Source: Candidatus Methanoperedens sp. (GTDB lineage: Archaea; Halobacteriota; Methanosarcinia; Methanosarcinales; Methanoperedenaceae). From it: 32,000 nucleotides of DNA. The notes below the pieces were generated by a model. That model was not told the origin of the DNA and searched no databases. It was given only the letters and a program-made list of their open reading frames with translations. Below, piece after piece: positions 1,020 to 28,621 of the stretch (position 1 is its first letter; each line of letters begins with the position of its first letter). The stretch covers positions 30,001 to 62,000 of the forward strand of contig JAPZAR010000036.1 of NCBI GenBank assembly GCA_027460535.1, written 5' to 3'. The position numbers and the translations under genes are program-made.

Positions 1020-1138
1020 AATATCACCCTTATTTACCTGTATTTGATTAAAGTTTAGAGTATATTATTTGCATATAATAATTGTTACCCAGAAACCGGA
1101 ACAAATGGGATTATGTTACGGAAATGGAGTAACAAATT
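1020..1138 (-). promoter_or_regulatory. Conserved promoter cassette, copy a (tandem GTTAC/GTAAC dyads plus a TATA-like box), upstream of gene 1-1019
   Basis: Plus strand reads gttacccagaaaccggaacaaatgggattatgttacggaaatggagtaacaaa. Adjacent sequence is ttgcatataataatt, which is ATTATTATATGCAA on the minus strand. Four other copies exist in the window. Confidence 0.55.
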
Positions 1139-1370
1139 AGTTTCTCCAAAAAAGCGGTATGTATGGGCTTATCATCTGGTCCCGAATTGCCAATTTACTT
1201 TCGTATTTTATTTATTCCTTCAATTCTCTCAAGCCAGGAATTTCCTCTTTTTGATACTATGGTACTTTGCGAAAAGTATTAGAAATTATAAAACATTCAT
1301 CTGCTTGCGAAAATTGCAGATTTTATGAAACCTGACAGAAATGGAAGAATTATTGAAGAAACAGAAGGAT

Positions 1371-3112: not shown

Positions 3113-3463
3113 TCAATTAGAAAAGGGATTATATCCAGAACTATACATACTCGCTACCATTAGTGCGATTAAACCAGGCCACATTTTGGCCTTCCATGCA
3201 AAACCGATGAAATATAAACCGAAGAATGATCCGAGCAATAAGCCTGCTATGCCCAGCACCAGAGAATGAACAAAAACAAATGTCTCCGTTGGTATGCTAT
3301 CAATTGCATCAAGTGTAGTTATTTCAGTCCCAGTGGGTATGCTATCAACTGCATTAAGTGTAGTTATTTCAGTCCCTGCAAATAATCTTGCCAAAGGCAA
3401 TGCAACAACATAAGTCAATATCCACAACACGGTTGTTCCTATAATTAAACCTAATATATCCAT
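3113..3463 (-). CDS. Small membrane protein with an internal 15-aa tandem duplication
   Basis: 116 aa ORF with hydrophobic N- and C-terminal segments flanking GTEITTLNAVDSIPT/GTEITTLDAIDSIPT. The start lies 2 nt after the stop of a 16-codon leader ORF (3466-3516). Confidence 0.55.
   Translation of the reverse strand: MDILGLIIGTTVLWILTYVVALPLARLFAGTEITTLNAVDSIPTGTEITTLDAIDSIPTETFVFVHSLVLGIAGLLLGSFFGLYFIGFAWKAKMWPGLIALMVASMYSSGYNPFSN
3291..3380. repeat. 45-nt tandem repeat, 2 units, inside CDS 3113-3463
   Basis: Unit ggtatgctatcaattgcatcaagtgtagttatttcagtcccagtg is followed directly by ggtatgctatcaactgcattaagtgtagttatttcagtccctgca. Confidence 0.85.
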
Positions 3464-3516
3464 CTTTATTTCCTATTTGTTTGTCTTATTAATTTTAAGC
3501 CTTCAATTTTATCCAT

Positions 3517-3635
3517 AATATCACCCTTATTTACTTGTATTTGATTAAAGTTTATAGTATATTATTTGCCTATAATAATTGTTACACAGAAACCGGAACA
3601 AATTGGATTTTGTTACGGAAATTGTGTAACAAATC
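3517..3635 (-). promoter_or_regulatory. Conserved promoter cassette, copy b
   Basis: Plus strand reads gttacacagaaaccggaacaaattggattttgttacggaaattgtgtaacaaa, with a TATA-like ataataatt block. It is followed on the minus strand by the conserved ATGGATAAAATTGAAGG. Confidence 0.55.
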
Positions 3636-3975
3636 AGTTTCTCCAAAAAAGCGGTATGTATGGGCTTATCATCTGGTCCCGAATTGCCAATTTACTTTCG
3701 TATTTTATTTATTCCTCCAATTCTCTCAAGCCAGGAATTTCCTCTTTTTGATACTATTGTACATTGCGAAAAGTATTAGAAATTATAAAACATTCATCTG
3801 CTTGTGAAAATTGCAGATTCTATGAAACCTAACAGAAATAGAAGAATAATGAAGAAACAGAAGGATTTACCCCTTTTCGCTTGAACAATTGAACAATCTT
3901 TCTCTAAATTGAATATACCGTACAAGTTCATCCATATCAAAAACTATATGCATTTTCTTCATATAATCTGGCATA

Positions 3976-4281
3976 TCATTTGATATGGGTATAACAATCA
4001 CCATCTTCTGTAAACGTTTTGTTTAACATATCTTCATTACCAAATATCAGTACGGGGAAATACATAACGCAAAATTTTCTCTTCATATCGTGATACATAA
4101 AAGTGTTAGGAAATTGAACCACAAATTTGCATTTCTGGCAGTGAAATATATTGATGCGTCCCTGAAATAGTTCTTCTTTTAATTCTGGATTAAGAGTTAT
4201 ATTCAGGGTATTCCAAATAGTTATGTTTACCTTTTCCCCACATTTGGGGCATTTTAGACCCAGATTTTTAGAGTCGGTCAT
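3976..4281 (-). CDS. CpXC-type zinc-ribbon protein, copy 2, truncated by a frameshift relative to copy 1 (possible pseudogene)
   Basis: The likely start is MTDSKNLGLKCPKCGEK at 4281, and both motifs CPKC and CQKC are intact. One extra A near 3996 (ggtataacaatcacc versus ggtataacatcacc) shifts the frame. The C-terminal ~40 aa seen in copy 1 would continue in another frame to a stop at 3867-3869. Confidence 0.5.
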   Translation of the reverse strand: MTDSKNLGLKCPKCGEKVNITIWNTLNITLNPELKEELFQGRINIFHCQKCKFVVQFPNTFMYHDMKRKFCVMYFPVLIFGNEDMLNKTFTEDGDCYTHIK

Positions 4282-4434
4282 TTTGTTATAAAAGAGAATA
4301 TTTTTCGTATTTATAGATTCGCTAATTTTTTTTTTGCAATTTCCATATGTGCATTCCAGGCATCTAGTTACCTGCAGGCTCTCAGGGAAGCAGGTGAAAA
4401 GCATCACGATAATGCAGGTGGATCCCGGAAATTA

Positions 4435-6069
4435 TCATCCTTTTTTTCTCAATAAATGCGCTATCATGAACAACCCGGCGATTGCAACTATTATTTCAAA
4501 TCCTGGTGTTTTTTGCAACTTCGATGCTTCATCATAGGCTTTAGTTGCTTCATCGTTTCTTCCCAGTTTCCCAAGAGCATCTCCTTTGTTATTCCACGCT
4601 TGAGCATACTGTGGATTAATCTTCAAGGCTTCATCATAGGCTTTAATTGCTTCATCGTTTCTTCCAAGAGTCTCAAGAGCAACTCCTTTGTTATTCCACA
4701 CTTGAGCATACTGTGGATTAATCTTCAATGCTTCATCATAAGCTTTAATTGCTTCATCGTATCTTCCAAGAATGGAAAGAACAAGTCCTTTATCATGCCA
4801 TGCTTCTGCATATTGTGGATTAATCCTTAAGGCCTCATCTAATGCCTTAACTGCATCTTCGTATTTCCCAAGATTAGAAAGAGCGAATCCTTTTTCATAC
4901 CATGTTTGAGCAATTTGTGGATTAATCTTCAAGGCTTCATCATATGTTTTAATTGCATCCTCATTTCTTCCAAGTTTAACAAGAGCCCATCCTTTGTTAT
5001 ACAATGCTGCATCCAATTGTGGATTGATCTTCAAGGCTTCATCATATGCTTTAATTGCATTTTCGTTGTCCCCAATATCGTTAAGAGCATTTCCTTTATT
5101 ATTCCACGCTTCAGCGAGTTGTGGATTAATCTTCAAGGCTTCATCATAGGCTTTAATTGCTTCATCGTATCTTCCAAGATTCTTAAAAGCAATACCTTTG
5201 TTATTCCACGCATCAGCATCCTGTGGATTAATCTTCAAGATTCCATCATAAGCTTTAATTTTGCTATACCATGCTTCAGCAAGTTGTGGATCAATCTTCA
5301 ATGCTTCATCGTAAGCTTTAATTGCATCATCGTATCTTCCAAGAATGTAAAGAGCACTTCCTTTGTTATTCCACACTTGAGCAAACTTTGGATTAATCTT
5401 CAAGGCTTCATCCCATGCTTTAAATGCTTCATCATTTCTCTTCAGATTGATAAGAGAAAATCCTTTTTCATTCCACGATAGAGCATATTGTGGATTAATC
5501 TTCAATGCTTCATCTAATGCTTTGATTGCATCATCGTATCTTCCAAGATTGTTAAGAACAAAACCTTTGTTATACCATGCTTCAGCGAGTTGTGGATCAA
5601 TCTTCAAGGCATCATCATATGCTTTAAATGCTTCATCGTATCTTCCAAGACTGATAAGAACACTTCCTCTGTTATTCCACGCATCAGCATCCTGTGGATT
5701 AATCTTGATTGCTTCATTCAATGCTTTAAATGCTTCATCGTTTCTTCCAAGACTGTAAAGAGCAGTTCCTTTGTTATACCAGGCTTCAGCATATTGTGGA
5801 TCAATCTTCAATGCTTCATCTAATGCTTTGATTGCATCGTCATTTCTTCCAAGGTCAGAAAGAGTTTTTCCTTTTTTATTCCACGCTTTAGCATCCTGTG
5901 GATTAATCTTTAAAGCTTCATCATAGGCTTTGATTGCTTCTGTGTAATTTCCTGCTTGACCCAATTCAATACCTTCAGCAACCCATTCATCAGCAGTTTT
6001 TGCCTCTACTACTTGGGCCATAAATGAAAAGAATATCAAACAAATAATTAAAATATTTATCCCGCTCAT
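4435..6069 (-). CDS. Extracellular TPR-repeat protein (about 15 units) with signal peptide and PGF-CTERM sorting signal
   Basis: A regular 34-aa/102-nt unit recurs: AIKAYDEALKINPQYAQAWNNKGxALxxLGRNDE. The C-terminus TPGFEIIVAIAGLFMIAHLLRKKG matches the PGF-CTERM pattern (PGF, TM helix, basic tail). I prefer the start at 6069 (MSGINILIICLIFFSFMAQVVEA) because AGGAGGTG lies 7 nt upstream. The ORF track start at 6111 lacks this. Confidence 0.8.
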   Translation of the reverse strand: MSGINILIICLIFFSFMAQVVEAKTADEWVAEGIELGQAGNYTEAIKAYDEALKINPQDAKAWNKKGKTLSDLGRNDDAIKALDEALKIDPQYAEAWYNKGTALYSLGRNDEAFKALNEAIKINPQDADAWNNRGSVLISLGRYDEAFKAYDDALKIDPQLAEAWYNKGFVLNNLGRYDDAIKALDEALKINPQYALSWNEKGFSLINLKRNDEAFKAWDEALKINPKFAQVWNNKGSALYILGRYDDAIKAYDEALKIDPQLAEAWYSKIKAYDGILKINPQDADAWNNKGIAFKNLGRYDEAIKAYDEALKINPQLAEAWNNKGNALNDIGDNENAIKAYDEALKINPQLDAALYNKGWALVKLGRNEDAIKTYDEALKINPQIAQTWYEKGFALSNLGKYEDAVKALDEALRINPQYAEAWHDKGLVLSILGRYDEAIKAYDEALKINPQYAQVWNNKGVALETLGRNDEAIKAYDEALKINPQYAQAWNNKGDALGKLGRNDEATKAYDEASKLQKTPGFEIIVAIAGLFMIAHLLRKKG

Positions 6070-7429: not shown

Positions 7430-8917
7430 TTATCTCCCAAAAGGAAAAAGCCTAGGGACTTTTTTCATATACTCCCCATATTCATCGCCAATTCTTGTTC
7501 TTGAGTCTTCTTCTTCATATTCAGCTATATAGGACAGAATTAAAGCAAGAATCAATGAATATATTAAACCAATTAATGAATTCGCTGATAATGCGAGTCC
7601 TAGGGTTCCAATAATCCAACCGAGATACAAGGGATGACGAACGAATTTATAGGGACCTCTTTCTATCAATTTGTTTCCATGAATAAAAACCTCTTTTATT
7701 AGAAGATATATACTCCAGAATATGATGAATACTCCCAGTACAAAAATAAGTAATCCAATAAATGCCAATATTATTAAAATAGTTAGATTGAAAACATTCA
7801 TTATCGGCATAAAGTTTTGTGATATCAACTCTAGATAAAGAAGTATATTTATTATTATAATAAAAACTTGAAATCCAGTTATAGATTTTCTTGATAAATC
7901 ACCAAAACGTGAAAAATGTCTTCTATATCTAAAGGCTACATACAACATTGCCAATAATCCAGCGAATGAAAAAACTATTTCAAATAATGGTAGTGGATAG
8001 GTTACATTGTAGATGTTCTCTTTATTATCTATAAAATTATTCGAGTCGATAATGCTGTCAGACGAAAACATATAAATTCCATAATTATTGCTCGATAAGG
8101 TGGTGTTTTGTAATCTGTTATTTCTCGATTTATCGAGATAGATACCATTATGAGTTTTCGAGATAGCGTTGTTTTGTAACAGGTTATCTCCCCCCAAAAG
8201 GAGATAGAAACCGTTGTTTTTATTTGAGTCAGCATTGTTACCTGAAAGAGAATTTTCACTCGAATCCCACAAATAGACACCCCGGTCATTGCCTGATGCG
8301 GTGTTGTTTACGATCATGTTGTTGTTCGAGCCCCAAAGTTCGATGCCGCTAACATTATTAAAGTTCACGATGTTATTTATTATCGTATTATTATCACTTA
8401 TAGAAACAACGAAAATGCCAATGTTTTCGTTTGAGTTTGCAATGTTATTTGCAATGATATTATTGCCCGAATTCCAGAGCCATATCCCATCACCATTATT
8501 TGATACGTTGTTATCAGAAATATTGCAATAATCCACGCCCAATTCAAGATATATTCCGGCGGCAAATTCAGTGAGTTTATTGGATGTTGTTCCTGTGATC
8601 GTAAGCCCTTTAATATTCACATAATCCGCTGTTACTGTAAATACATTGTTTTTGGGATTTGCTGCTATGATCTTCGAAAATGCAGATCCATTTTCAGATC
8701 GAATGGTCAATCTCTTGTTCACCTTAATATTCTCGGAATAAGTTCCATCCCTGACAATAATCATATCCCCACCATTTGAAGCATTAACTGCTTCCTGAAT
8801 AGTTATGTGATTATCAGGCACATAAATCGTTGATGCACTGGTTATCGTTGCGGAAGCAACAAAAAATAATATTGTTCCAATTGTGACAAATGCAATCAAA
8901 CCAAATTTCTTATTCAT
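7430..8917 (-). CDS. Fusion protein: signal peptide, NosD-like right-handed beta-helix, and C-terminal multi-TM ICMT/PEMT-family methyltransferase domain
   Basis: Beta-helix repeats are present (NNxIxxNxxGIxLWxSxNN). Several hydrophobic helices follow, then GPYKFVRHPLYLGWIIGTLGLAL...AEYEEEDSRTRIGDEYGEYMKKVP, which fits the ICMT-type RHPxY and EE..L..FG..Y..Y signature. The start at 8917 (MNKKFGLIAFVTIGTILFFVASA) forms an ATGA overlap with the upstream small ORF. The ORF track alternative is 8941. Confidence 0.7.
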   Translation of the reverse strand: MNKKFGLIAFVTIGTILFFVASATITSASTIYVPDNHITIQEAVNASNGGDMIIVRDGTYSENIKVNKRLTIRSENGSAFSKIIAANPKNNVFTVTADYVNIKGLTITGTTSNKLTEFAAGIYLELGVDYCNISDNNVSNNGDGIWLWNSGNNIIANNIANSNENIGIFVVSISDNNTIINNIVNFNNVSGIELWGSNNNMIVNNTASGNDRGVYLWDSSENSLSGNNADSNKNNGFYLLLGGDNLLQNNAISKTHNGIYLDKSRNNRLQNTTLSSNNYGIYMFSSDSIIDSNNFIDNKENIYNVTYPLPLFEIVFSFAGLLAMLYVAFRYRRHFSRFGDLSRKSITGFQVFIIIINILLYLELISQNFMPIMNVFNLTILIILAFIGLLIFVLGVFIIFWSIYLLIKEVFIHGNKLIERGPYKFVRHPLYLGWIIGTLGLALSANSLIGLIYSLILALILSYIAEYEEEDSRTRIGDEYGEYMKKVPRLFPFGR

Positions 8918-9060
8918 TCTGTATCCATTGATATAAGCCATACAGCAAGTCCTGCAAATGTTCCTATCAAGAGCCAGGATTCACCAGCATCCCTTGCCCT
9001 AAGTGTTGCAATTATGAATAGCATCCCCAATCCTTTGGTGATTATATATTTCAAACTCAT
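8914..9060 (-). CDS. Putative 48-aa membrane micro-protein
   Basis: Manual translation gives MSLKYIITKGLGMLFIIATLRARDAGESWLLIGTFAGLAVWLISMDTE. Its TGA overlaps the ATG at 8917 of the downstream gene (ATGA). It is too short to appear in the ORF track. Confidence 0.3.
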   Translation of the reverse strand: MSLKYIITKGLGMLFIIATLRARDAGESWLLIGTFAGLAVWLISMDTE

Positions 9061-9175
9061 ACTGATAATTTCGATCTCCAAAAGTTAAACTGAATCCCAA
9101 GAAATTTTAAGAATATATCAAACATATTTTATCCCCTCTCTTTTTATCATTTAAATTCAAACCGCAATTTTCCAT

Positions 9176-9333
9176 GATAAATCACTTCTTATCTAACTTC
9201 ACTATCTGTTTTCCAATTCTTTGATTGAATTTTACAGTAGATTATTTGTATATAATAATTGGTAGTTTATAATATCTGTTACCTGAAAACCGTAATAAAA
9301 GGGGTTTTGTTACGGAAATAGTGTAACAAATCT
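9176..9333 (-). promoter_or_regulatory. Conserved promoter cassette, copy c
   Basis: Plus strand reads gttacctgaaaaccgtaataaaaggggttttgttacggaaatagtgtaacaaa, preceded by ttgtatataataattggtagtttataata. On the minus strand a 22-codon ORF (9175-9107) follows, then genes 9060-7430. Confidence 0.5.
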
Positions 9334-9408
9334 GTTTTTAAATGATTGGGGTCTTCGCGGAATCCTTGTTGAAAAAGGAATAAGACCTTCAATCCTTATC
9401 TTGAATAT

Positions 9409-10029
9409 TTAAAGGTCTTCGTCTTGACCTTGAAATATAGATGGAAATATTAATGGCAATAGCATTATTAAAATACCCAGATACCCAGAAAACTCGGGGT
9501 AAGTGCAGACAAAAGAGCCTTTATATACGGGATCGCCATTAAGATTTTCCCCGCATGTCCCAGGCGTGTCCACTGCCTCTCCTATATGATATGTTCCCAC
9601 TGTGATGGGTGTGCCCGTGACTGTATTGGTCATGGGGTAAATCCCCGATAACGTGTTGCCATACGGATTCACCGACATCCCAGCCGTGTTCACTCCAAAA
9701 CCGATTTGATTTGTTCCCGCTGTGAAGGGTATGGCCGTGACTGTATTGGTCGTCGGGTAAATCCCCGATACGGTGTTGCCATAAAGATTCACCGACATCC
9801 CAGCCGTATTCACTCCAAAACCGATTTGATTTGTTCCCACTGTGATGGGTGTGCCCATGACTGTATTGGTCATCGGGTAAATCCCCGATACGGTGTTGCC
9901 ACCATAATTCGTTACGTAAGTATACGTTTCCGCCTGCGCTGGCAATCCTGACCCAAGTAGGATCGTCATAGTTATTATTATTGAAACTATAATGAGTTCA
10001 TAACTTTTATGTGGTTTATTCTTGGTCAT
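9409..10029 (-). CDS. Secreted, membrane-anchored protein with three degenerate YVTN-like repeats
   Basis: A signal peptide (ILLGSGLPAQA) is followed by YVTNYGGNTVSGIYPMTNTVMGTPITVGTNQIGFGVNTAGMS, present about three times. This aligns with the YVTN repeat of genes 22217/23730 (YVTN..GG..VS.I...TNTV..T..VG.....G..VN.AG). The C-terminus has a hydrophobic segment, GYLGILIMLLPLIFPSIF. SD AAGGAGGC is present. Confidence 0.6.
   Translation of the reverse strand: MTKNKPHKSYELIIVSIIITMTILLGSGLPAQAETYTYVTNYGGNTVSGIYPMTNTVMGTPITVGTNQIGFGVNTAGMSVNLYGNTVSGIYPTTNTVTAIPFTAGTNQIGFGVNTAGMSVNPYGNTLSGIYPMTNTVTGTPITVGTYHIGEAVDTPGTCGENLNGDPVYKGSFVCTYPEFSGYLGILIMLLPLIFPSIFQGQDEDL
9559..9900. repeat. 120-nt tandem repeat, about 2.8 units, inside CDS 9409-10029
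   Basis: Near-identical units start at 9900, 9780 and 9660 on the minus strand, each beginning ggcaacac (GNT). Confidence 0.8.
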
Positions 10030-10190
10030 TTTGCCTCCTTATTAAACCATCTACTTGTATTTGATATAATTTTACAGTAGATTAATTGTGGATAAGAATT
10101 AGTTGTTTATAAGATCGGTTACAGAAAACTGGGAACAAATGGGATTTTGTTACGGAAATGGCGTAACAAATCTTTTTAACCTGACTTTAT
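10030..10190 (-). promoter_or_regulatory. Conserved promoter cassette, copy d (best exemplar)
   Basis: Dyad 1 is tttgttacggaaatggcgtaacaaa at 10146-10170. Dyad 2 is gttacagaaaactgggaacaaa at 10118-10139. TATA-like sequences and the SD AAGGAGG lie before the ATG at 10029. Confidence 0.55.
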
Positions 10191-12300: not shown

Positions 12301-14121
12301 TTACAAATCCCTCACAAGACGAAAGCCGAGAAAGTTGCTGGGGTGGTCAGATTTTTCATGGTTGCGAAGCGCCGACCGGCATCCTCCTGCGCTTCTGTTC
12401 CAGCTACCGCCCCTAATAATCCGATAAGAGCCATCTACACTTTCCCATGAACTTCCATCTGCTGGAGCTCCATTGTAATTTTCATGCCAACTGTCCTGCA
12501 CCCATTCCTGAACATTGCCATGCATGTCATACAAACCCCATGGATTGGGCTTTTTCTGACCAACATCGTGGGTTTTGCCCCCTGAGTTTTCTTCATACCA
12601 TGCATAAATGCCAAGTTTTGATTCATCTTCACCAAATGAATATCGTGTTGTCTTCCCGGCGCGCGCTGCATATTCCCATTCAGCTTCTGAAGGCATGCGG
12701 TACTTGTTTGTACCTTCTTTTTCATTGAGTTTTTTTATAAATTCCTGAACATCTTTCCAGGATACTCTTTCTACAGGCAAGTTTTCGCCCTTGAAATTTG
12801 AAGGATTGTTTTTCATAACTGCTTTCCATTCCTGCTGAGTCACAGGATAGACGCCAAGATAGAACGCCTTGCTTATTGTTATTTTATGAACAGGTTTTTC
12901 CCGATCAGATTCATTCGAACCCATCATGAAATTGCCTGCGGGGATGAGCGCGAACTTCATGCCTTTTATTTCCTGCTGAGCCTTTAGTCTATCTTGCTCT
13001 TCTTTGGCTTTTTTCTCATCATCTTCTTTTTCCTTCTTCTCCTTCTCTTTTATTGATTTGTTTTTTTCTTTATTTTCCGTTTCAACTATTTCAAGGAAAG
13101 GCAGGGCTTCTGTTGTCTGCTCTTTATCAGCGAAATATGAGCTATTTTTTTTTGCCCAATCTACATGTTTATCCACATCTTGATTTGTTACTGTACCATT
13201 TATACTCGCTAAAGCTTTTTTGAAATCTGAATTATTTAGCGACCTTATTATAGGAGAAATTGGATCTATAATTCCTTTATTTAGTTCATTCCACATGTTC
13301 CAGTGCGCTTCCGTGCAAAGTGTTGCGATATCGCGTCCTGAAAATAATTTCGAGACACAGCTTTTCGCTATCTCCTGCATATCCCCGTCGAACTCTAAAT
13401 CATGTTTATGTATATACAGTTTAATCATTTTCATAACAGCCTGCGGATCAGGCAGAGGGATGTAAATTCGCTTTTGGAACCGGCTGAGCACTGCAGAGTC
13501 AATATCCCATGGAGTATTGGTTGCGCCCATTGTCACAATATGCCGGCTTGAATTCTTATTATGCAATCCATCCATTTCTGAAAGCAATGTGGACAATATT
13601 CTTATCGAAGCTTCAGATTTCTCAGTATTACGGATACTCACAATAGAATCGATTTCGTCCAGAAAAATGATAGACGGGGCTCTTTTCCATGCACAATCAT
13701 ATAAAGCAGAGATGATCTTTGAAGACTCACCGAAATATTTTGATAATATATCGCTTATTTTTACATTAAAAAAAGTAGCTTTAAAAGAGCCGGCAGTTGC
13801 CGCAGCAAGCATTGTCTTACCAGTTCCGGGAGGTCCAAAAAGAAGAATGCCTTTCCATGGGTCAGGTCTTCCCTTAATTTTACTAAAAGTAACGGACTCA
13901 TTGATAGCTTTCTTAGCATTATCAATACCTGCAATATCTTCCCAGGTTACTTTGGTTGAGGTTATCATAACCTTAATTCTTTCATCACAATCCCCTTCTC
14001 TTATTGCAGTATCATTATCTCCAGCTTCACGAGCCGTCCCTGCAGGGTTATTTTGCTTTGTGTACTTTTTCTTTATCGCTTCTAATTCATCAGATAAATC
14101 CTTTAAATCATCTGGGTTCAT
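12301..14121 (-). CDS. Fusion protein: Vps4/katanin-like AAA+ ATPase, Lys/Glu-rich linker, and FGE/SUMF1 (formylglycine-generating-enzyme-like) domain
   Basis: Walker A is GPPGTGKT and Walker B is IIFLDEIDS. GATNTPWDIDSAVLSRFQKRIYIPLPD is typical of the Vps4/spastin clade. The linker is KEKEKKEKEDDEKKAKEEQD. The C-terminal domain reads PVHKITISKAFYLGVYPVTQQEW...VSWKDVQEF...YRMPSEAEWEYAARAG...GLYDMHGNVQEWVQD...RGGSWN...GFRLVRDL. A strong SD, GGAGGGGG, is present. Confidence 0.8.
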   Translation of the reverse strand: MNPDDLKDLSDELEAIKKKYTKQNNPAGTAREAGDNDTAIREGDCDERIKVMITSTKVTWEDIAGIDNAKKAINESVTFSKIKGRPDPWKGILLFGPPGTGKTMLAAATAGSFKATFFNVKISDILSKYFGESSKIISALYDCAWKRAPSIIFLDEIDSIVSIRNTEKSEASIRILSTLLSEMDGLHNKNSSRHIVTMGATNTPWDIDSAVLSRFQKRIYIPLPDPQAVMKMIKLYIHKHDLEFDGDMQEIAKSCVSKLFSGRDIATLCTEAHWNMWNELNKGIIDPISPIIRSLNNSDFKKALASINGTVTNQDVDKHVDWAKKNSSYFADKEQTTEALPFLEIVETENKEKNKSIKEKEKKEKEDDEKKAKEEQDRLKAQQEIKGMKFALIPAGNFMMGSNESDREKPVHKITISKAFYLGVYPVTQQEWKAVMKNNPSNFKGENLPVERVSWKDVQEFIKKLNEKEGTNKYRMPSEAEWEYAARAGKTTRYSFGEDESKLGIYAWYEENSGGKTHDVGQKKPNPWGLYDMHGNVQEWVQDSWHENYNGAPADGSSWESVDGSYRIIRGGSWNRSAGGCRSALRNHEKSDHPSNFLGFRLVRDL

Positions 14122-15034: not shown

Positions 15035-15115
15035 TCAATCCCCAGATGTAAAACTGGATTTGTTGTAGTTTTTGTTGTATTCTTTTTTTACATTTGTACG
15101 GAAACTTTTATCCAT
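15035..15115 (-). pseudogene. 5-prime remnant of a beta-helix-type gene (26 codons) attached to cassette e
   Basis: MDKSFRTNVKKEYNKNYNKSSFTSGD*. The first ~45 nt are homologous to the start of gene 1-1019 (MDK[IEGLKGQ]SFCTKVKKA), after which the sequence diverges to a stop. Confidence 0.5.
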
Positions 15116-15268
15116 ATTATCACCCTTATTTACTTTATTGACTGAATTTTACAATAGATTATTTGTATATAATAATTGGTAGTCTATAATATTTGTTACC
15201 TGAAAATCGGAACAAATTGGGTTTTGTTCCGGAAATGTCGTAACAAATCTTTTTAACCTGACTTTATA
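15116..15268 (-). promoter_or_regulatory. Conserved promoter cassette, copy e
   Basis: Plus strand reads gttacctgaaaatcggaacaaattgggttttgttccggaaatgtcgtaacaaa, with ttgtatataataattggtagtctataata. The distal flank aacaaatctttttaacctgactttat is shared with copy d. Confidence 0.5.
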
Positions 15269-15405: not shown

Positions 15406-15999
15406 ATGGACTCTGAATTGATCGATGAATGGGAAAAGATCGTAGGACATGATAGGATGAAAATGATCTCAAACAAATATTTTAACAGCAGGTTCGATTT
15501 AGAGTTCCCTGATCTCCAGGAGGGCAATTTTAAACATAAAAAATTGAGCATACATTCTGAACTCGAAAATAATGCAAATATGCTAAAAGAATTTGAAAAA
15601 AATGGTTTATTGACCCATAATGAAGTTTCAAGAATGATTGATGTATCAACCCGGAATATTATAAATAAGAGCATGCCTGGTGCGATTTTTGAGAATGTCC
15701 GCAAAACGTTAGATGATGAAATATTGAGAACTATTAAGATTGGGCTGATAGAAATTGAACGAAAAGGTTTACTGACCCACGATGAAGTCTCAAGAATTAT
15801 TAAAGTATTATCCTGGAATCTTGCAGATGAGAGCATGCCTGGTGCTCTTTTTGAGTATGTCCGCATTCTACTGGATAATGAGAGATTTAAGGATCAGGGA
15901 GAGACCAAGCGTCTTGAATTGGTGATCAGGTACATCAGAGAGAGTCTGGTCATTGAGGAGGAAAAACTTGTCAATGAGGAGGAAAAAAGGTTAGAGTAG
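15406..15999 (+). CDS. Hypothetical acidic protein with two ~55-aa internal repeats
   Basis: The repeats are KNGLLTHNEVSRMIDVSTRNIINKSMPGAIFENVRKTLDDE and KGLLTHDEVSRIIKVLSWNLADESMPGALFEYVRILLDNE, with a 165-nt period. I prefer it over the antisense ORF 15342-15866, which is low-complexity. Confidence 0.5.
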   Translation: MDSELIDEWEKIVGHDRMKMISNKYFNSRFDLEFPDLQEGNFKHKKLSIHSELENNANMLKEFEKNGLLTHNEVSRMIDVSTRNIINKSMPGAIFENVRKTLDDEILRTIKIGLIEIERKGLLTHDEVSRIIKVLSWNLADESMPGALFEYVRILLDNERFKDQGETKRLELVIRYIRESLVIEEEKLVNEEEKRLE

Positions 16000-16569
16000 T
16001 TATTTTCGAATCAATTTTATGTTGAAACTGCAATTGGCGTGATCTCCTTTTTCAAATTGGTCAACACTCCCAAATCGTTTTACTATGTTTTTGATCACAG
16101 GTTCGCAGGTGATCTCACAATTTTTCTTCTCACACGGAGTTCTTTTTTCTATGTCCATGTTGATCCTGATCCCTTCCTTGATTTTTCTTGCATTATGATT
16201 TACTTTGAAATCAGCTTCTAGACAATAATTTAAAATATATCCAATCCCATCCCCGAAATCCCTGATCTTTTCAGGAACTTTTCCTTTGATTGAATCCAGC
16301 TTATCACTAATGTCCAGAATTTCGCTCCCGAAAGGAGATATCACATATATTGAGTGTGGTTCGACGATAATGGCTTCGCTTTCAAACTTAATAACCAGAC
16401 GAGATGAAACAAGGTCTGTAAGCGCCTCTGAGATTCTTTCTTTGCTGATATCCAGATCATCTGATAGATCGCGGACCCGACAGGATTTCATGCAAAGCTT
16501 TTCTAAAATGTCTACTCTGCTATTCCTGCTGAGTTTTTTGGAGAGGTCTATCAGGGATTCGGTGGACAT
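16000..16569 (-). CDS. Putative winged-helix (ArsR/MarR-like) transcriptional regulator with a Cys-containing C-terminal domain
   Basis: The N-terminal region RVDILEKLCMKSCRVRDLSDDLDISKERISEALTDLVSSRLV looks like a wHTH. The stop codon abuts the stop of the convergent gene at 15999. Confidence 0.5.
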   Translation of the reverse strand: MSTESLIDLSKKLSRNSRVDILEKLCMKSCRVRDLSDDLDISKERISEALTDLVSSRLVIKFESEAIIVEPHSIYVISPFGSEILDISDKLDSIKGKVPEKIRDFGDGIGYILNYCLEADFKVNHNARKIKEGIRINMDIEKRTPCEKKNCEITCEPVIKNIVKRFGSVDQFEKGDHANCSFNIKLIRK

Positions 16570-20164: not shown

Positions 20165-20264
20165 TACAGGTTTTTCCATTATCCAAAGTGCGCTGAATTT
20201 TGGGATTTGGAAAGTTGTGCAGGCTGCCTATAGTCTTTTATGAGCATGAAAACTAATTGCCTTC

Positions 20265-20318
20265 AGTCACAGATCGCCGGAATGAATTCCGAACGCATCG
20301 GGTGAGGATGCTCGATGG
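20265..20318. repeat. Dispersed ~53-nt repeat, copy B
   Basis: agtcacagatcgccggaatgaattccgaacgcatcgggtgaggatgctcgatgg. It contains the palindrome CGGAATgaATTCCG and the hairpin GCATCgggtgagGATGC. Weaker similarity extends about 20 nt upstream (agcatgaaaa...). Confidence 0.7.
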
Positions 20319-22216: not shown

Positions 22217-23587
22217 ATGAAATATTTAGTCCGGTTGCTAGCAGTACTGGCAATCTTATTGTTGGCAGGAAGCGCAGGCGCGGCGCCGTTTGCATATATC
22301 ACGAACCTTGGCGGCCACAGTGTCTCTGTGATTGACATAGCAACGAACACTGTTACAGCCACCATGACTGTAGGACCCAGTCCTTATGGAGTTGCAGTCA
22401 ACCCGGCGGGAACAAAGGTATATGTGACGAACGAAAACGACCACAATGTCTCTGTGATTGATACTGCCACGAACACTGTTACAGCAACCGTGAATGTAGG
22501 AAGCACTCCTTGGGGAGTTGCAGTCAACCCGGCGGGAACAAAGGTATACGTGGCGAACTATAACAGCAACAGCGTCTCTGTGATTGATACAGGCACGAAC
22601 ACTGTTACAGCCACCGTGCCTGTAGGAAGCGGTCCTTATGGAGTTGCAGTCAACCCGGCGGGAACAAAGGTATACGTGGCGAACTATAACAGCAACAGCG
22701 TCTCTGTTATTGATACAGGCACGAACACTGTTACAGCCACCGTGCCTGTAGGAAGCGGTCCTTATGGAGTTGCAGTCAACCCGGCGGGAACAAAGGTATA
22801 CGTGACGAACAATAACAACAACAGCGTCTCTGTGATTGACATAGGCACGAACACTGTTACAGCCACCGTAAATGTAGGAAGCTATCCTTCTGGAGTTGCA
22901 GTAAACCCGGCTGGAACAAAGGTATACGTGACGAACGAATTTAGCAACAACGTATCTGTTATTGACACAGCCACGAACGCTGTTACAGCAACCGTGAAAG
23001 TAGGAAGCTATCCTGTTGGAGTCGCAGTAAACCCGGCGGGAACAAAGGTATACGTGGCGAACTATTTCAACAACAATGTCTCCGTTATTGATACTGCCAC
23101 GAACACTGTCACAGCCAGCGTGAATGTAGGAGGACAGCCTATTGCTTTCGGTCAGTTTATAGGTCCTGAGGCAGGCTCGACTGTGGGCTACAGCGCCACT
23201 GTCGTAGGCGGACAGAACACTTATGTCCAGGCATCCAACGGCAACTTTGGCACAATACTTGCAGGACAGAGCAAAATAATCAATAACTCTGTTACCCTGA
23301 ACAACACGGGCGATGCGACCGCCACCGTTGATGCAAGGTTGAGTGACAATGCTGGCGGTGTGTATGGACTTGTAAGTGGAAGCAACGTTCTCGGAGGTTC
23401 TAACTTTTCCCTTGCAATCACCAATACTGGAAACTGGACATCATTAAATGATGCCGGGACGAATGCCAGGGTTGCAACTGCGCCTGGCTTTGGCGCTTTA
23501 ACAATACTTAACGCAAGACTCTTCGTGCCTCAAATGCAGCCGGGAGGAGCGTACAGCGGAACCGTGATTCTGACCTTTGGAAATTAG
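22217..23587 (+). CDS. Secreted 7-blade YVTN beta-propeller protein with an unassigned ~140-aa C-terminal beta-rich module
   Basis: The signal peptide is MKYLVRLLAVLAILLLAGSAGA. Seven 42-aa repeats follow: VYV(T/A)Nxxxx(N/S)VSVIDTATNTVTATVxVGSxPxGVAVNPAGTK. The C-terminal module starts GSTVGYSATVVGGQNTYVQ and ends AYSGTVILTFGN. SD AGGAGGT is present. Confidence 0.85.
   Translation: MKYLVRLLAVLAILLLAGSAGAAPFAYITNLGGHSVSVIDIATNTVTATMTVGPSPYGVAVNPAGTKVYVTNENDHNVSVIDTATNTVTATVNVGSTPWGVAVNPAGTKVYVANYNSNSVSVIDTGTNTVTATVPVGSGPYGVAVNPAGTKVYVANYNSNSVSVIDTGTNTVTATVPVGSGPYGVAVNPAGTKVYVTNNNNNSVSVIDIGTNTVTATVNVGSYPSGVAVNPAGTKVYVTNEFSNNVSVIDTATNAVTATVKVGSYPVGVAVNPAGTKVYVANYFNNNVSVIDTATNTVTASVNVGGQPIAFGQFIGPEAGSTVGYSATVVGGQNTYVQASNGNFGTILAGQSKIINNSVTLNNTGDATATVDARLSDNAGGVYGLVSGSNVLGGSNFSLAITNTGNWTSLNDAGTNARVATAPGFGALTILNARLFVPQMQPGGAYSGTVILTFGN
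22283..23167. repeat. 126-nt coding tandem repeat array (7 YVTN blades); units 22541-22666 and 22667-22792 differ at 1 nt
   Basis: Direct reading shows the two adjacent units are identical except gtgattgat versus gttattgat. Confidence 0.85.
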
Positions 23588-28223: not shown

Positions 28224-28568
28224 ATGTTCACCTTTCCGTTTTTTGTATTTCTTCTTTTATTGCAGTTTTTGATTTGAGGGTTTACCTTTGCAAAAGGGTT
28301 ATTGTACCATTGCCTGCTTAATGTTAGTATCACCATTGATCTCACAACCTTTCCAAAGGCAAATACTCATATCAGGAGAAGATATTTTTTATTTGATATA
28401 ACCCTTCCGATTATATAATCAAATGATTTAATAGTAAATTATCTGAAAGCTAATGAGAATATATTTTATCTGCTTTTGTTGACGATATTCGACGCGTCCA
28501 ATTAAGATTCAAAGTCTATTGCTTTTACCTCTTTTCGCCTTTCCAAGCATGAAAAATCAATCGTTTAT

Positions 28569-28621
28569 AGTCACAGACCGCCGGAATGAATTCCGAGCGC
28601 ATCAGGTGAGGATGCTCGAGG
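28569..28621. repeat. Dispersed ~53-nt repeat, copy C
   Basis: agtcacagaccgccggaatgaattccgagcgcatcaggtgaggatgctcgagg. Only about 4 mismatches to copy B. The upstream agcatgaaaa similarity is also shared. Confidence 0.7.

Follow-up and report, generated by a model that had tools for sequence, protein, structure and literature searches.

The stretch of DNA analyzed here (the window) comprises 32,000 nucleotides of contig JAPZAR010000036.1 (positions 30,001 to 62,000, forward strand), chromosomal DNA from a metagenome-assembled genome (MAG) of Candidatus Methanoperedens. Its proteins correspond to the NCBI entries MCZ73583xx (locus tags O8C66_; exact matches); YcaO/TfuA (McrA thioamidation) and FtsZ are encoded inside it, and its neighbors are an S7/S12/NusA/L7Ae/RpoA'' cluster at one end and, at the opposite end, a thermosome gene. 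No tRNA genes were found in the window, and the whole 32 kb gave no Rfam match at the gathering threshold. The subject of this work is a non-coding block of about 125-160 nt that recurs in front of five genes in the window; we refer to this block as the cassette.

A sequence-only reading of the window had proposed that the cassette is a five-copy promoter element with two tandem dyads. A repeat search recovers the same five regions as a single 5-copy family (1027-1156, 3524-3653, 9221-9350, 10061-10190 and 15138-15267), with all five copies in the same (direct) orientation; aligned on the minus strand, they share a sharp start about 8 nt before the first dyad (D1) and extend to the ATG. We designate these copies a-e and name those found elsewhere by locus. 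The parts of each copy are listed below; D2 is the second dyad, SD is the Shine-Dalgarno sequence, and the TATA boxes are putative.

1020-1145, minus strand: copy a, short form, with 17 nt fewer than the long form; D1 1112-1136, D2 1084-1105, single TATA box (TTATATGC) 1071-1078, SD 1023-1029, ATG 1017-1019; downstream, a 1618-aa beta-helix protein with a signal peptide.
3517-3642, minus strand: copy b, short form; D1 3609-3633, D2 3581-3602, TATA box (TTATAGGC) 3568-3575, SD 3520-3526.
3466-3516, minus strand: 16-codon upstream open reading frame (uORF) downstream of copy b, ending 2 nt before the ATG of a 116-aa membrane protein (3113-3463).
9228-9339, minus strand: copy c, long form; D1 9306-9330, D2 9278-9299 (left arm TTTATTAC), TATA-1 9265-9272, TATA-2 9248-9255; downstream, small transmembrane (TM) open reading frames (ORFs; from 9126 and from 9060), then a 503-aa beta-helix/ICMT fusion protein (7430-8941).
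9371-9419, minus strand: terminator-like hairpin (AAGACCTT...AAGGTCTT) with a T-run, located where the 206-aa gene ends, just upstream of copy c.
10030-10179, minus strand: copy d, long form, in the divergent intergenic region beside CstA; would drive a 206-aa repeat protein with a signal peptide and a C-terminal TM segment (9409-10029).
10146-10170, minus strand: copy d D1, TTTGTTAC-GCCATTTCC-GTAACAAA, a perfect 8-N9-8 palindrome; proposed distal, high-affinity site.
10118-10139 (or from 10115), minus strand: copy d D2, TTTGTTCC-N9-GTAAC, an imperfect dyad whose end is 5 nt from TATA-1; proposed as the proximal site.
10105-10112, minus strand: copy d TATA-1 (TTATAAAC).
10088-10095, minus strand: copy d TATA-2, degenerate here (TTATCCAC).
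10034-10040, minus strand: copy d SD (AAGGAGG), with the ATG at 10027-10029.
15116-15256, minus strand: copy e, long form, divergent from a 197-aa gene (15406-15999); D1 15223-15247 (right arm GGAAC), D2 15195-15216, TATA-1 (TTATAGAC) 15182-15189, TATA-2 15165-15172, SD 15119-15125.
15035-15115, minus strand: 26-codon ORF starting MDK, downstream of copy e.

The dyad coordinates originally given for copy d, its 6-nt spacer and the 31-nt distance between dyad centers are correct. Each copy had also been placed immediately 5' of a minus-strand ATG; for copies a, b, d and e this holds, with the SD (GGGTGAT or AAGGAGG) and ATG as described, but the ATG adjacent to copy c opens a 9-codon ORF only, and the first plausible genes there start at 9126, 9060 and 8941. 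The hairpin and T-run, whose terminator function is predicted from the sequence, lie between the 206-aa gene and copy c, so copy c would start its own transcript. When the window is searched for TTTGTTAC-N9-GTAACAAA with up to three mismatches, ten matches are found, exactly two in each cassette and zero elsewhere, that is, ten matches where 0.18 are expected by chance (none of 100 shuffles reaches ten). The 10-kb flanks on both sides of the window contain no further dyads; the five copies are therefore clustered within 15 kb.

Read in the direction of the gene, the cassette begins with a short A-run (AAAAACAG). D1 follows, with the consensus ATTTGTTAC-NNN-ATTTCC-GTAACAAAA, and, after 4-6 variable nt, D2, with the consensus (A)TTTGTTCC-NNN-TTTCAG-GTAAC; of the 15 copies that we describe in this work, 10 have a D1 that is perfectly palindromic (8-N9-8), D2 is a weaker, imperfect palindrome, and the two centers are 31 bp apart (three helical turns) in all copies. 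D1 and D2 can equally be seen as a 31-nt unit repeated directly; written in one orientation, the half-sites read TTTGTT[A/C]C, strongly in D1 and more weakly in D2. In the long form, D2 is followed after 5 nt by TATA-1 (TTATAAAC), TACY-AATTA and TATA-2 (TTATATAC), the second octamer being located 17 nt downstream of the first; then come a putative initiator region (AAATAATCTACTGTAAAATTC), a leader of about 25-50 nt, the SD (GGGTGAT) and ATG GAT AAA. The short form (copies a and b) lacks the 17 nt that hold TATA-1. The long GTAAC-AGATA-TTATAAAC and the short GTAAC-AATTA-TTATATGC both conform to GTAAC-N5-TTATAWRC; the absence of the 17 nt places TATA-2 at the position of TATA-1, and the distance from D2 to a TATA octamer is therefore preserved across the indel. 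The TATA-like boxes of the sequence-only reading thus stand in both length forms, as octamers assigned by consensus.

The conservation of the cassette is strongly uneven, as measured by the mean pairwise identity per segment among eight independent copies. The identity is 0.34 in the 5' flank and 0.61 in the A-run; in D1 it is 1.00 in the left arm, 0.62 in the first three spacer nucleotides, 0.96 in ATTTCC and 0.94 in the right arm. It is 0.68 in the spacer between the dyads; 0.86, 0.58-0.69 and 0.91 in the left arm, spacer and right arm of D2; 0.93 in TATA-1; 0.88-0.95 in the TATA-2 region; 0.78 in the next 22 nt; and 0.43 beyond. Of all columns, those in the arms of the dyads and in the TATA boxes are conserved best (the N3 loops are at 0.58-0.62), and the conserved core stops about 22 nt past TATA-2, where a transcript from TATA-2 would start.

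Using the double-dyad pattern, we scanned 185,579 species genomes, which returned one contig (L001), and metagenomes, which returned 16 loci, three of which are homologous to the cassette (L012, L019 and L023); further loci were reached by walking from conserved small proteins and from homologs of the local winged helix-turn-helix (wHTH) gene described below. The result is ten further copies (L001, L012, L019, L023, three on a single sediment contig designated L036_1 to L036_3, and one each in L043, L044 and L045), that is, 15 copies in at least seven assemblies. The contigs of six of the ten external copies have called genes or ends that are consistent with Methanoperedens. All 15 copies are oriented toward a downstream ORF on the same strand; both dyads are kept in 13 of the 15, and D1 in 14. 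L001 (VEPD01000261.1) is a true copy that was deposited under a Ruminiclostridium MAG from a manganese-dependent methane-oxidizing reactor; because the neighboring radical-SAM/SIR2 gene is 87% identical to one on the Methanoperedens-like contig L036, L001 is most likely mis-binned Methanoperedens DNA, a probable binning error in the public record. Homologs of the N-terminal region of the 1618-aa protein yielded no new cassettes (none begin MDK), and three scans of 2.9 million viral contigs yielded no cassette (two matches are coding sequence of a large phage).

Several observations on these loci stand apart from the cassette itself. The other 13 metagenome loci were rejected as cassettes: they consist either of tandem repeats of 31 nt or of a double dyad unrelated to the cassette. 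The latter (CTTGTTAC-N9-GTAAC-N10-TTATTAC-N9-GTAAA, in L008-L011, L013 and L021) has the same 31-nt spacing and precedes an XRE-like gene (MDNKVRELRIQ...) in other metagenomes; it is not homologous to the cassette beyond the pattern. In L019, the ORF of an IS6-like transposase (927-1940) is inserted in the cassette copy (1905-2065) directly after ...CTGCAAAATTCAGG; this interruption is incidental. Beyond the insertion sequence (IS) lies a gene for a 179-aa protein with a C-terminal wHTH that may be the original downstream gene. In L012, a repeat resembling a tRNA T-arm plus acceptor fragment (GAATTAACTGGGTTCAAGCCCCAGAGGTGCAATCGCCC; about 900-940 and 1163-1200) lies on both sides of an ORF that is located downstream of the cassette and encodes 55 aa with a signal peptide.

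The orthologous locus shared by L001 and L036_3 is the best single test of selection against mere recent copying. In both, the cassette is divergent from the same radical-SAM/SIR2 gene (protein 87% identical); the 100-nt core is 89% identical, whereas the DNA upstream of D1 is 43% identical and that after the core 36%. Because the core is conserved while its surroundings are randomized, the block appears to be held constant by purifying selection, possibly aided by gene conversion among copies. The caveat that came with the sequence-only reading, that similarity along the whole length might reflect recent duplication only, is largely answered by the uneven conservation and by the footprint at this locus, although copies a and b are indeed recent duplicates: they are located within a 0.94-kb segmental duplication that is 96-99% identical and includes an upstream CpXC gene, and copy b carries with it the first eight codons (MDKIEGLK) of the 1618-aa gene. 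(The dispersed duplication spans 996-1936 and 3493-4436, that is, the CpXC-domain gene, the cassette and eight beta-helix-gene codons; in the copy at 3976-4407, the CpXC reading frame is broken into 143 aa and a 45-aa fragment.)

One rival explanation is a neutral relic, in which a fragment consisting of a promoter and the 5' end of a gene was recently duplicated and then homogenized by gene conversion, so that the dyads would have no selected role beyond that in the ancestral promoter. The a/b duplicates with their donor codons are what such a history would leave, as are homology that, in copies a, b and e and in L023 and L036, reaches as far as the MDK codons, the absence of dyads outside the cassette, the confinement of the window copies to 15 kb, and the decay of D2 and TATA-1 in the lineage of copy e. 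The relic does not account for invariant arms beside near-saturated triplets, for a core that is 89% identical across assemblies and environments while adjacent intergenic DNA is 36-43% identical, or for the retention of both dyads in 13 of 15 copies and of D1 in 14; we consider it unlikely.

The sequence-only reading had also suggested that the overlapping dyad arms could form mutually exclusive RNA hairpins. If the dyads were transcribed, they could form one, two or alternative leader hairpins controlling stability, processing or translation: D1 is a stable hairpin, the whole of copy e folds (z = -2.6) with nested pairings of D1-left with D2-right and D1-right with D2-left, and L019 has a single D2 change that affects both sides. 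However, a covariation test of the two hairpins on a 9-copy alignment found no signal above shuffles (of 500 shuffles, 213 score at least as high as the alignment), and the D2 pair 63-75 is a C·U mismatch in eight of nine copies, which contradicts the hairpins. The arm changes in copies a and e are uncompensated. Among the half-site changes, an A to C change occurs at the same arm position in the left arm of D2, and its mirror change in the right arm of D1 of copy e; such mirrored, uncompensated changes fit degenerate protein half-sites, TTTGTT[A/C]C. Folded as DNA, D1 has -4.4 to -6.5 kcal/mol (z about -6), a symmetry far above that of shuffles, and D2 folding is nearly absent (-0.2 to -1.4 kcal/mol). 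Both dyads are upstream of both conserved TATA octamers and conservation starts only about 8 nt before D1, so no shared promoter could transcribe them; no Rfam family matches. Furthermore, copies d, L001 and L036_3 are located within divergent intergenic regions and must therefore hold their own promoters. From these sequence comparisons, we conclude that the dyads probably act as double-stranded DNA sites and judge an RNA element to be quite improbable.

A mobile or recombination element, for example, an insertion resembling a miniature inverted-repeat transposable element (MITE) or a pair of recombinase core sites with an outward promoter, would explain the sharp 5' boundary that is common to many contexts. 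The 8-N9-8 dyad is similar in shape to a recombinase core site, and the L019 copy abuts the IS6-like transposase. The features of mobility that had been named as a check on the cassette are missing: the only inverted repeats are the internal dyads (no terminal inverted repeats were found), and target duplications are not evident. The 3' boundary is graded, the orientation is that of a promoter in 15 of 15 copies (and direct in all window copies), and the viral contigs hold no copy. Apart from the IS within L019, the copies are not accompanied by any integrase or transposase. The cassette shares with MITEs and repetitive extragenic palindromic (REP)-like repeats that it is short, multi-copy, intergenic and palindrome-bearing, and differs from them in lacking terminal inverted repeats and target duplications, in its strict promoter orientation and in its graded 3' end; we regard mobility as very improbable.

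The remaining alternative assigns D1 to the opposite strand: on the plus strand, D1 and TCTGTTTTT would form a hairpin and T-run, an antisense terminator or insulator that stops transcripts arriving from the side of the downstream gene. A terminator scan does flag 10146-10170 plus TCTTTTTAAC on the plus strand, and the A-run before D1 is partly conserved (0.61). However, within the core conservation is lowest in the A-run, and D2, the TATA boxes and the 31-bp spacing would be left unexplained. Archaeal termination requires oligo-T alone. This explanation is extremely improbable.

The interpretation that we favor, and hold to be moderately probable on the sequence evidence, is that the cassette is an archaeal promoter module that is portable and confined to Candidatus Methanoperedens; a two-site operator for a dimeric regulator would abut the B recognition element (BRE)/TATA and be followed by the leader, the SD and the short MDK ORF. 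Two dimers of one winged-helix regulator would bind D1 and D2 cooperatively on the same side of the double helix; the dimer on D2 would abut or overlap the BRE and would either recruit TATA-binding protein (TBP) and transcription factor B (TFB), giving activation, or block them, giving repression. We lean slightly toward activation because the site is upstream of the BRE; the good TATA boxes lean the opposite way, toward repression. The module would have been copied before unrelated genes by segmental duplication and recombination, and this copying would have wired mostly secreted and membrane proteins (beta-helix, beta-propeller-like, small TM) to one input. That the cassette is promoter-proximal, as first proposed, agrees with the uniform orientation toward a downstream ORF, with the hairpin and T-run before copy c, and with the high conservation of the arms and TATA boxes.

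A number of observations weigh against this interpretation. In a census of 152 kb of non-redundant Methanoperedens DNA (a sample biased to loci picked via the cassette or its neighbors), no dyads occur outside the full homologous cassette except for one chance match with three mismatches; within this sample, the dyads do not recur independently in otherwise unrelated promoters. A profile hidden Markov model (nhmmer) built from 11 cassette copies likewise finds full-length copies only and no degenerate or partial ones. Among the relatives of copy e, L043 and L036_2 have a decayed D2, TATA-1 or D1 arms. The ATTTCC half of the D1 spacer is conserved and asymmetric, and a simple symmetric dimer does not account for it. 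Gene conversion among paralogous copies could help conservation, and the assignments of the TATA boxes and transcription start sites are those of a consensus. The source MAG is absent from the collection of 185,579 genomes, so that the copy numbers are not genome-wide. Finally, the dyads (8-N9-8, 25 bp, with a G/C-containing spacer) are unlike Lrp boxes, which are 13-15 bp palindromes with an A/T-rich center (PMC2715240, PMC2995911).

The genes downstream of the cassette are non-homologous. In addition to those of the window, they include the following:

L001, L012, L023 and L036_1: signal-peptide proteins.
L036_3: a unique 56-aa ORF.
L036, L043, L044 and L045, orthologs of copy e: like copy e, a 26-codon MDK ORF upstream of a ZnF/56-aa operon.

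A DUF-like secreted protein and a 489-aa beta-helix protein also belong to the downstream set. Secreted or membrane proteins are encoded in about 8 of 11 independent units, so the bias that had been noted among the window copies holds in the additional ones. The surface-protein regulon that was proposed from this bias stands as one module before several genes and fails as a set of independent dyad sites in the 152 kb; because the dyads are absent outside the cassette, any ‘regulon’ rests on copying. The ZnF/56-aa operon was rejected as the target of copy e: it has its own conserved promoter, and the cassette is absent there in M. nitratireducens contigs.

In copies a, b and e, the homology continues for about 35 nt into a short ORF that starts MDK. 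This ORF is found in several states: fused in frame (in copy a, to the signal peptide of the 1618-aa protein), as a uORF of 16 to 32 codons, or lost. As a uORF, it either stops 2 nt short of the ATG of the following gene (copy b) or overlaps that ATG (L023, L036_1). The 56-aa MDK ORF of L036, used as a query, has no match other than itself; the MDK ORF is therefore no conserved protein family. Between L023 and L036_1, the MDK frame is kept across a 3-nt indel and the peptide is only about 55% identical; these features hint weakly that the ORF may be translated.

The genes next to copy e include a candidate for the regulator:

16000-16569, minus strand: 189-aa protein, candidate regulator, confined to Methanoperedens-like sequences; the N-terminal part is an ArsR/MarR-like wHTH, and the C-terminal part is an alpha/beta domain with four invariant Cys.
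15406-15999, plus strand: 197-aa protein, whose gene is convergent with the wHTH gene at all homologous loci; in the window, its start lies 158 nt from D1 of copy e and faces it.

The 189-aa protein matches Pfam HTH_5 (E = 4.7e-6), and NCBIfam ArsR/SmtB below the cut-off; its structure model (pLDDT 74) matches, weakly, only generic wHTH folds (E of at least 2.8e-3, TM-score about 0.3 over the whole protein), and the fold search gave no informative match for the C-terminal domain. Its 33 homolog clusters are 50-89% identical, and the organism names, where given, are all Candidatus Methanoperedens. The wHTH gene and its convergent partner adjoin cassette e in the window and in L043, L044 and L045; in L036, the wHTH gene is one gene away from cassette L036_1. 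Distant wHTH homologs (63-69% identity, with a shorter partner) have no cassette within 10 kb, and the tie between cassette and wHTH gene is one of synteny. The product of 16000-16569, which had been named as a local wHTH to try against the cassette, is thus a candidate for its regulator by linkage. The 197-aa protein contains an internal 48-aa duplication (15582-15725 and 15744-15887), and its gene abuts the wHTH gene; it has no Pfam or NCBIfam match and occurs across the homologous loci in 185-197-aa and 136-138-aa forms.

A more ambitious extension of the promoter-module interpretation would be that a single genus-specific, Cys-rich (redox- or metal-sensing) wHTH protein acts via the module in ANME-2d (anaerobic methanotrophic archaea 2d) and so controls secreted proteins of the beta-helix and beta-propeller types, in a set that varies. 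Promoter duplication would then create a strain-varying switch of the surface proteome, to which the conserved MDK ORF would add translational coupling with the gene downstream; we regard this extension as speculative and rather doubtful.

Other features of the window were recorded in passing. One gene (window 12301-14121, minus strand; L036 2957-5476) joins a CdvC/Vps4-like AAA ATPase with either one or two domains of the FGE-sulfatase/SUMF1 type; the fusion gene is syntenic with the wHTH gene and cassettes in two genomes, and AAA-HEAT and radical-SAM/SIR2 genes are nearby. A second non-coding repeat (20249-20315 and 28553-28619, plus strand) is 85% identical over 67 nt with a near-identical core, GTCACAGAyCGCCGGAATGAATTCCGArCGCATCrGGTGAGGATGCTCGA, that contains the palindrome CGGAAT-GA-ATTCCG and is followed by T-runs about 40 nt downstream; it has no Rfam match even at E <= 1 and could be a small RNA or another operator. 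A beta-propeller (YNCE/NHL-like) gene (22217-23587) encodes 456 aa, compared with 414 aa in L027 (1474-2718), an ENA assembly of the same population; the difference is one blade (42 aa, 126 nt), and two tandem paralogs share 126-nt repeats.

The searchable literature yielded neither a described promoter or operator of Candidatus Methanoperedens nor anything relevant on the motif of the cassette. The organism is without a genetic system; the cassette offers a concrete, testable cis-element for it and can aid the reading of metatranscriptomes from methane-oxidizing enrichments.

The arrangement of the dyads has precedents in Archaea. In the Ptr2, LysM and Ss-LrpB operators, dimer sites are located two or three helical turns apart on one DNA face and the activator site is a few bp upstream of the BRE; the proximal position is constrained, and an extra upstream site aids cooperative binding (PMC2995911). 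The cassette resembles them in having palindromes upstream of a putative core promoter with centers 31 bp apart and D2 5 nt before the putative TATA box, and differs in that no Lrp/AsnC gene is linked to it and that it is known from sequence alone; because the 8-N9-8 site is not Lrp-like, we use the Lrp family as a functional analogy only. ArsR/SmtB and MarR regulators are dimeric wHTH proteins that act on imperfect inverted repeats near promoters, and the linked candidate has such a wHTH; it differs from them in its C-terminal domain with four Cys, and synteny alone ties it to the cassette. The boxes of another archaeal regulator, EarA, are reportedly repeated at the fla promoter; these are short direct repeats at a single operon, not a multi-copy element, whereas the cassette has 25-bp palindromes. 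EarA is a euryarchaeal activator required for the fla operon of Methanococcus maripaludis, which encodes a cell-surface structure, and acts through sequence just upstream of the BRE (PMC5512572).

The second precedent is promoter reuse. Reused or ‘putative mobile’ promoters in prokaryotes, as surveyed by Nijveen, Matus-Garcia and van Passel, are highly similar upstream regions that occur before non-homologous genes within and across related genomes and rewire their regulation (PMC3575422). Copies a-e and the ten external copies fit this description, with near-identical upstream sequence before non-homologous genes. The survey was similarity-based and mostly bacterial; the cassette adds to this picture an operator with two sites, TATA boxes of the archaeal type and an ORF in the leader, and, unlike the promoters surveyed there, its copying is visible as a segmental duplication with donor codons. 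The cassette would provide a clean archaeal example of regulatory rewiring through promoter duplication. It introduces no new kind of mechanism and is a lineage-specific example of two known ones, an archaeal operator beside the BRE/TATA and the reuse of promoters.

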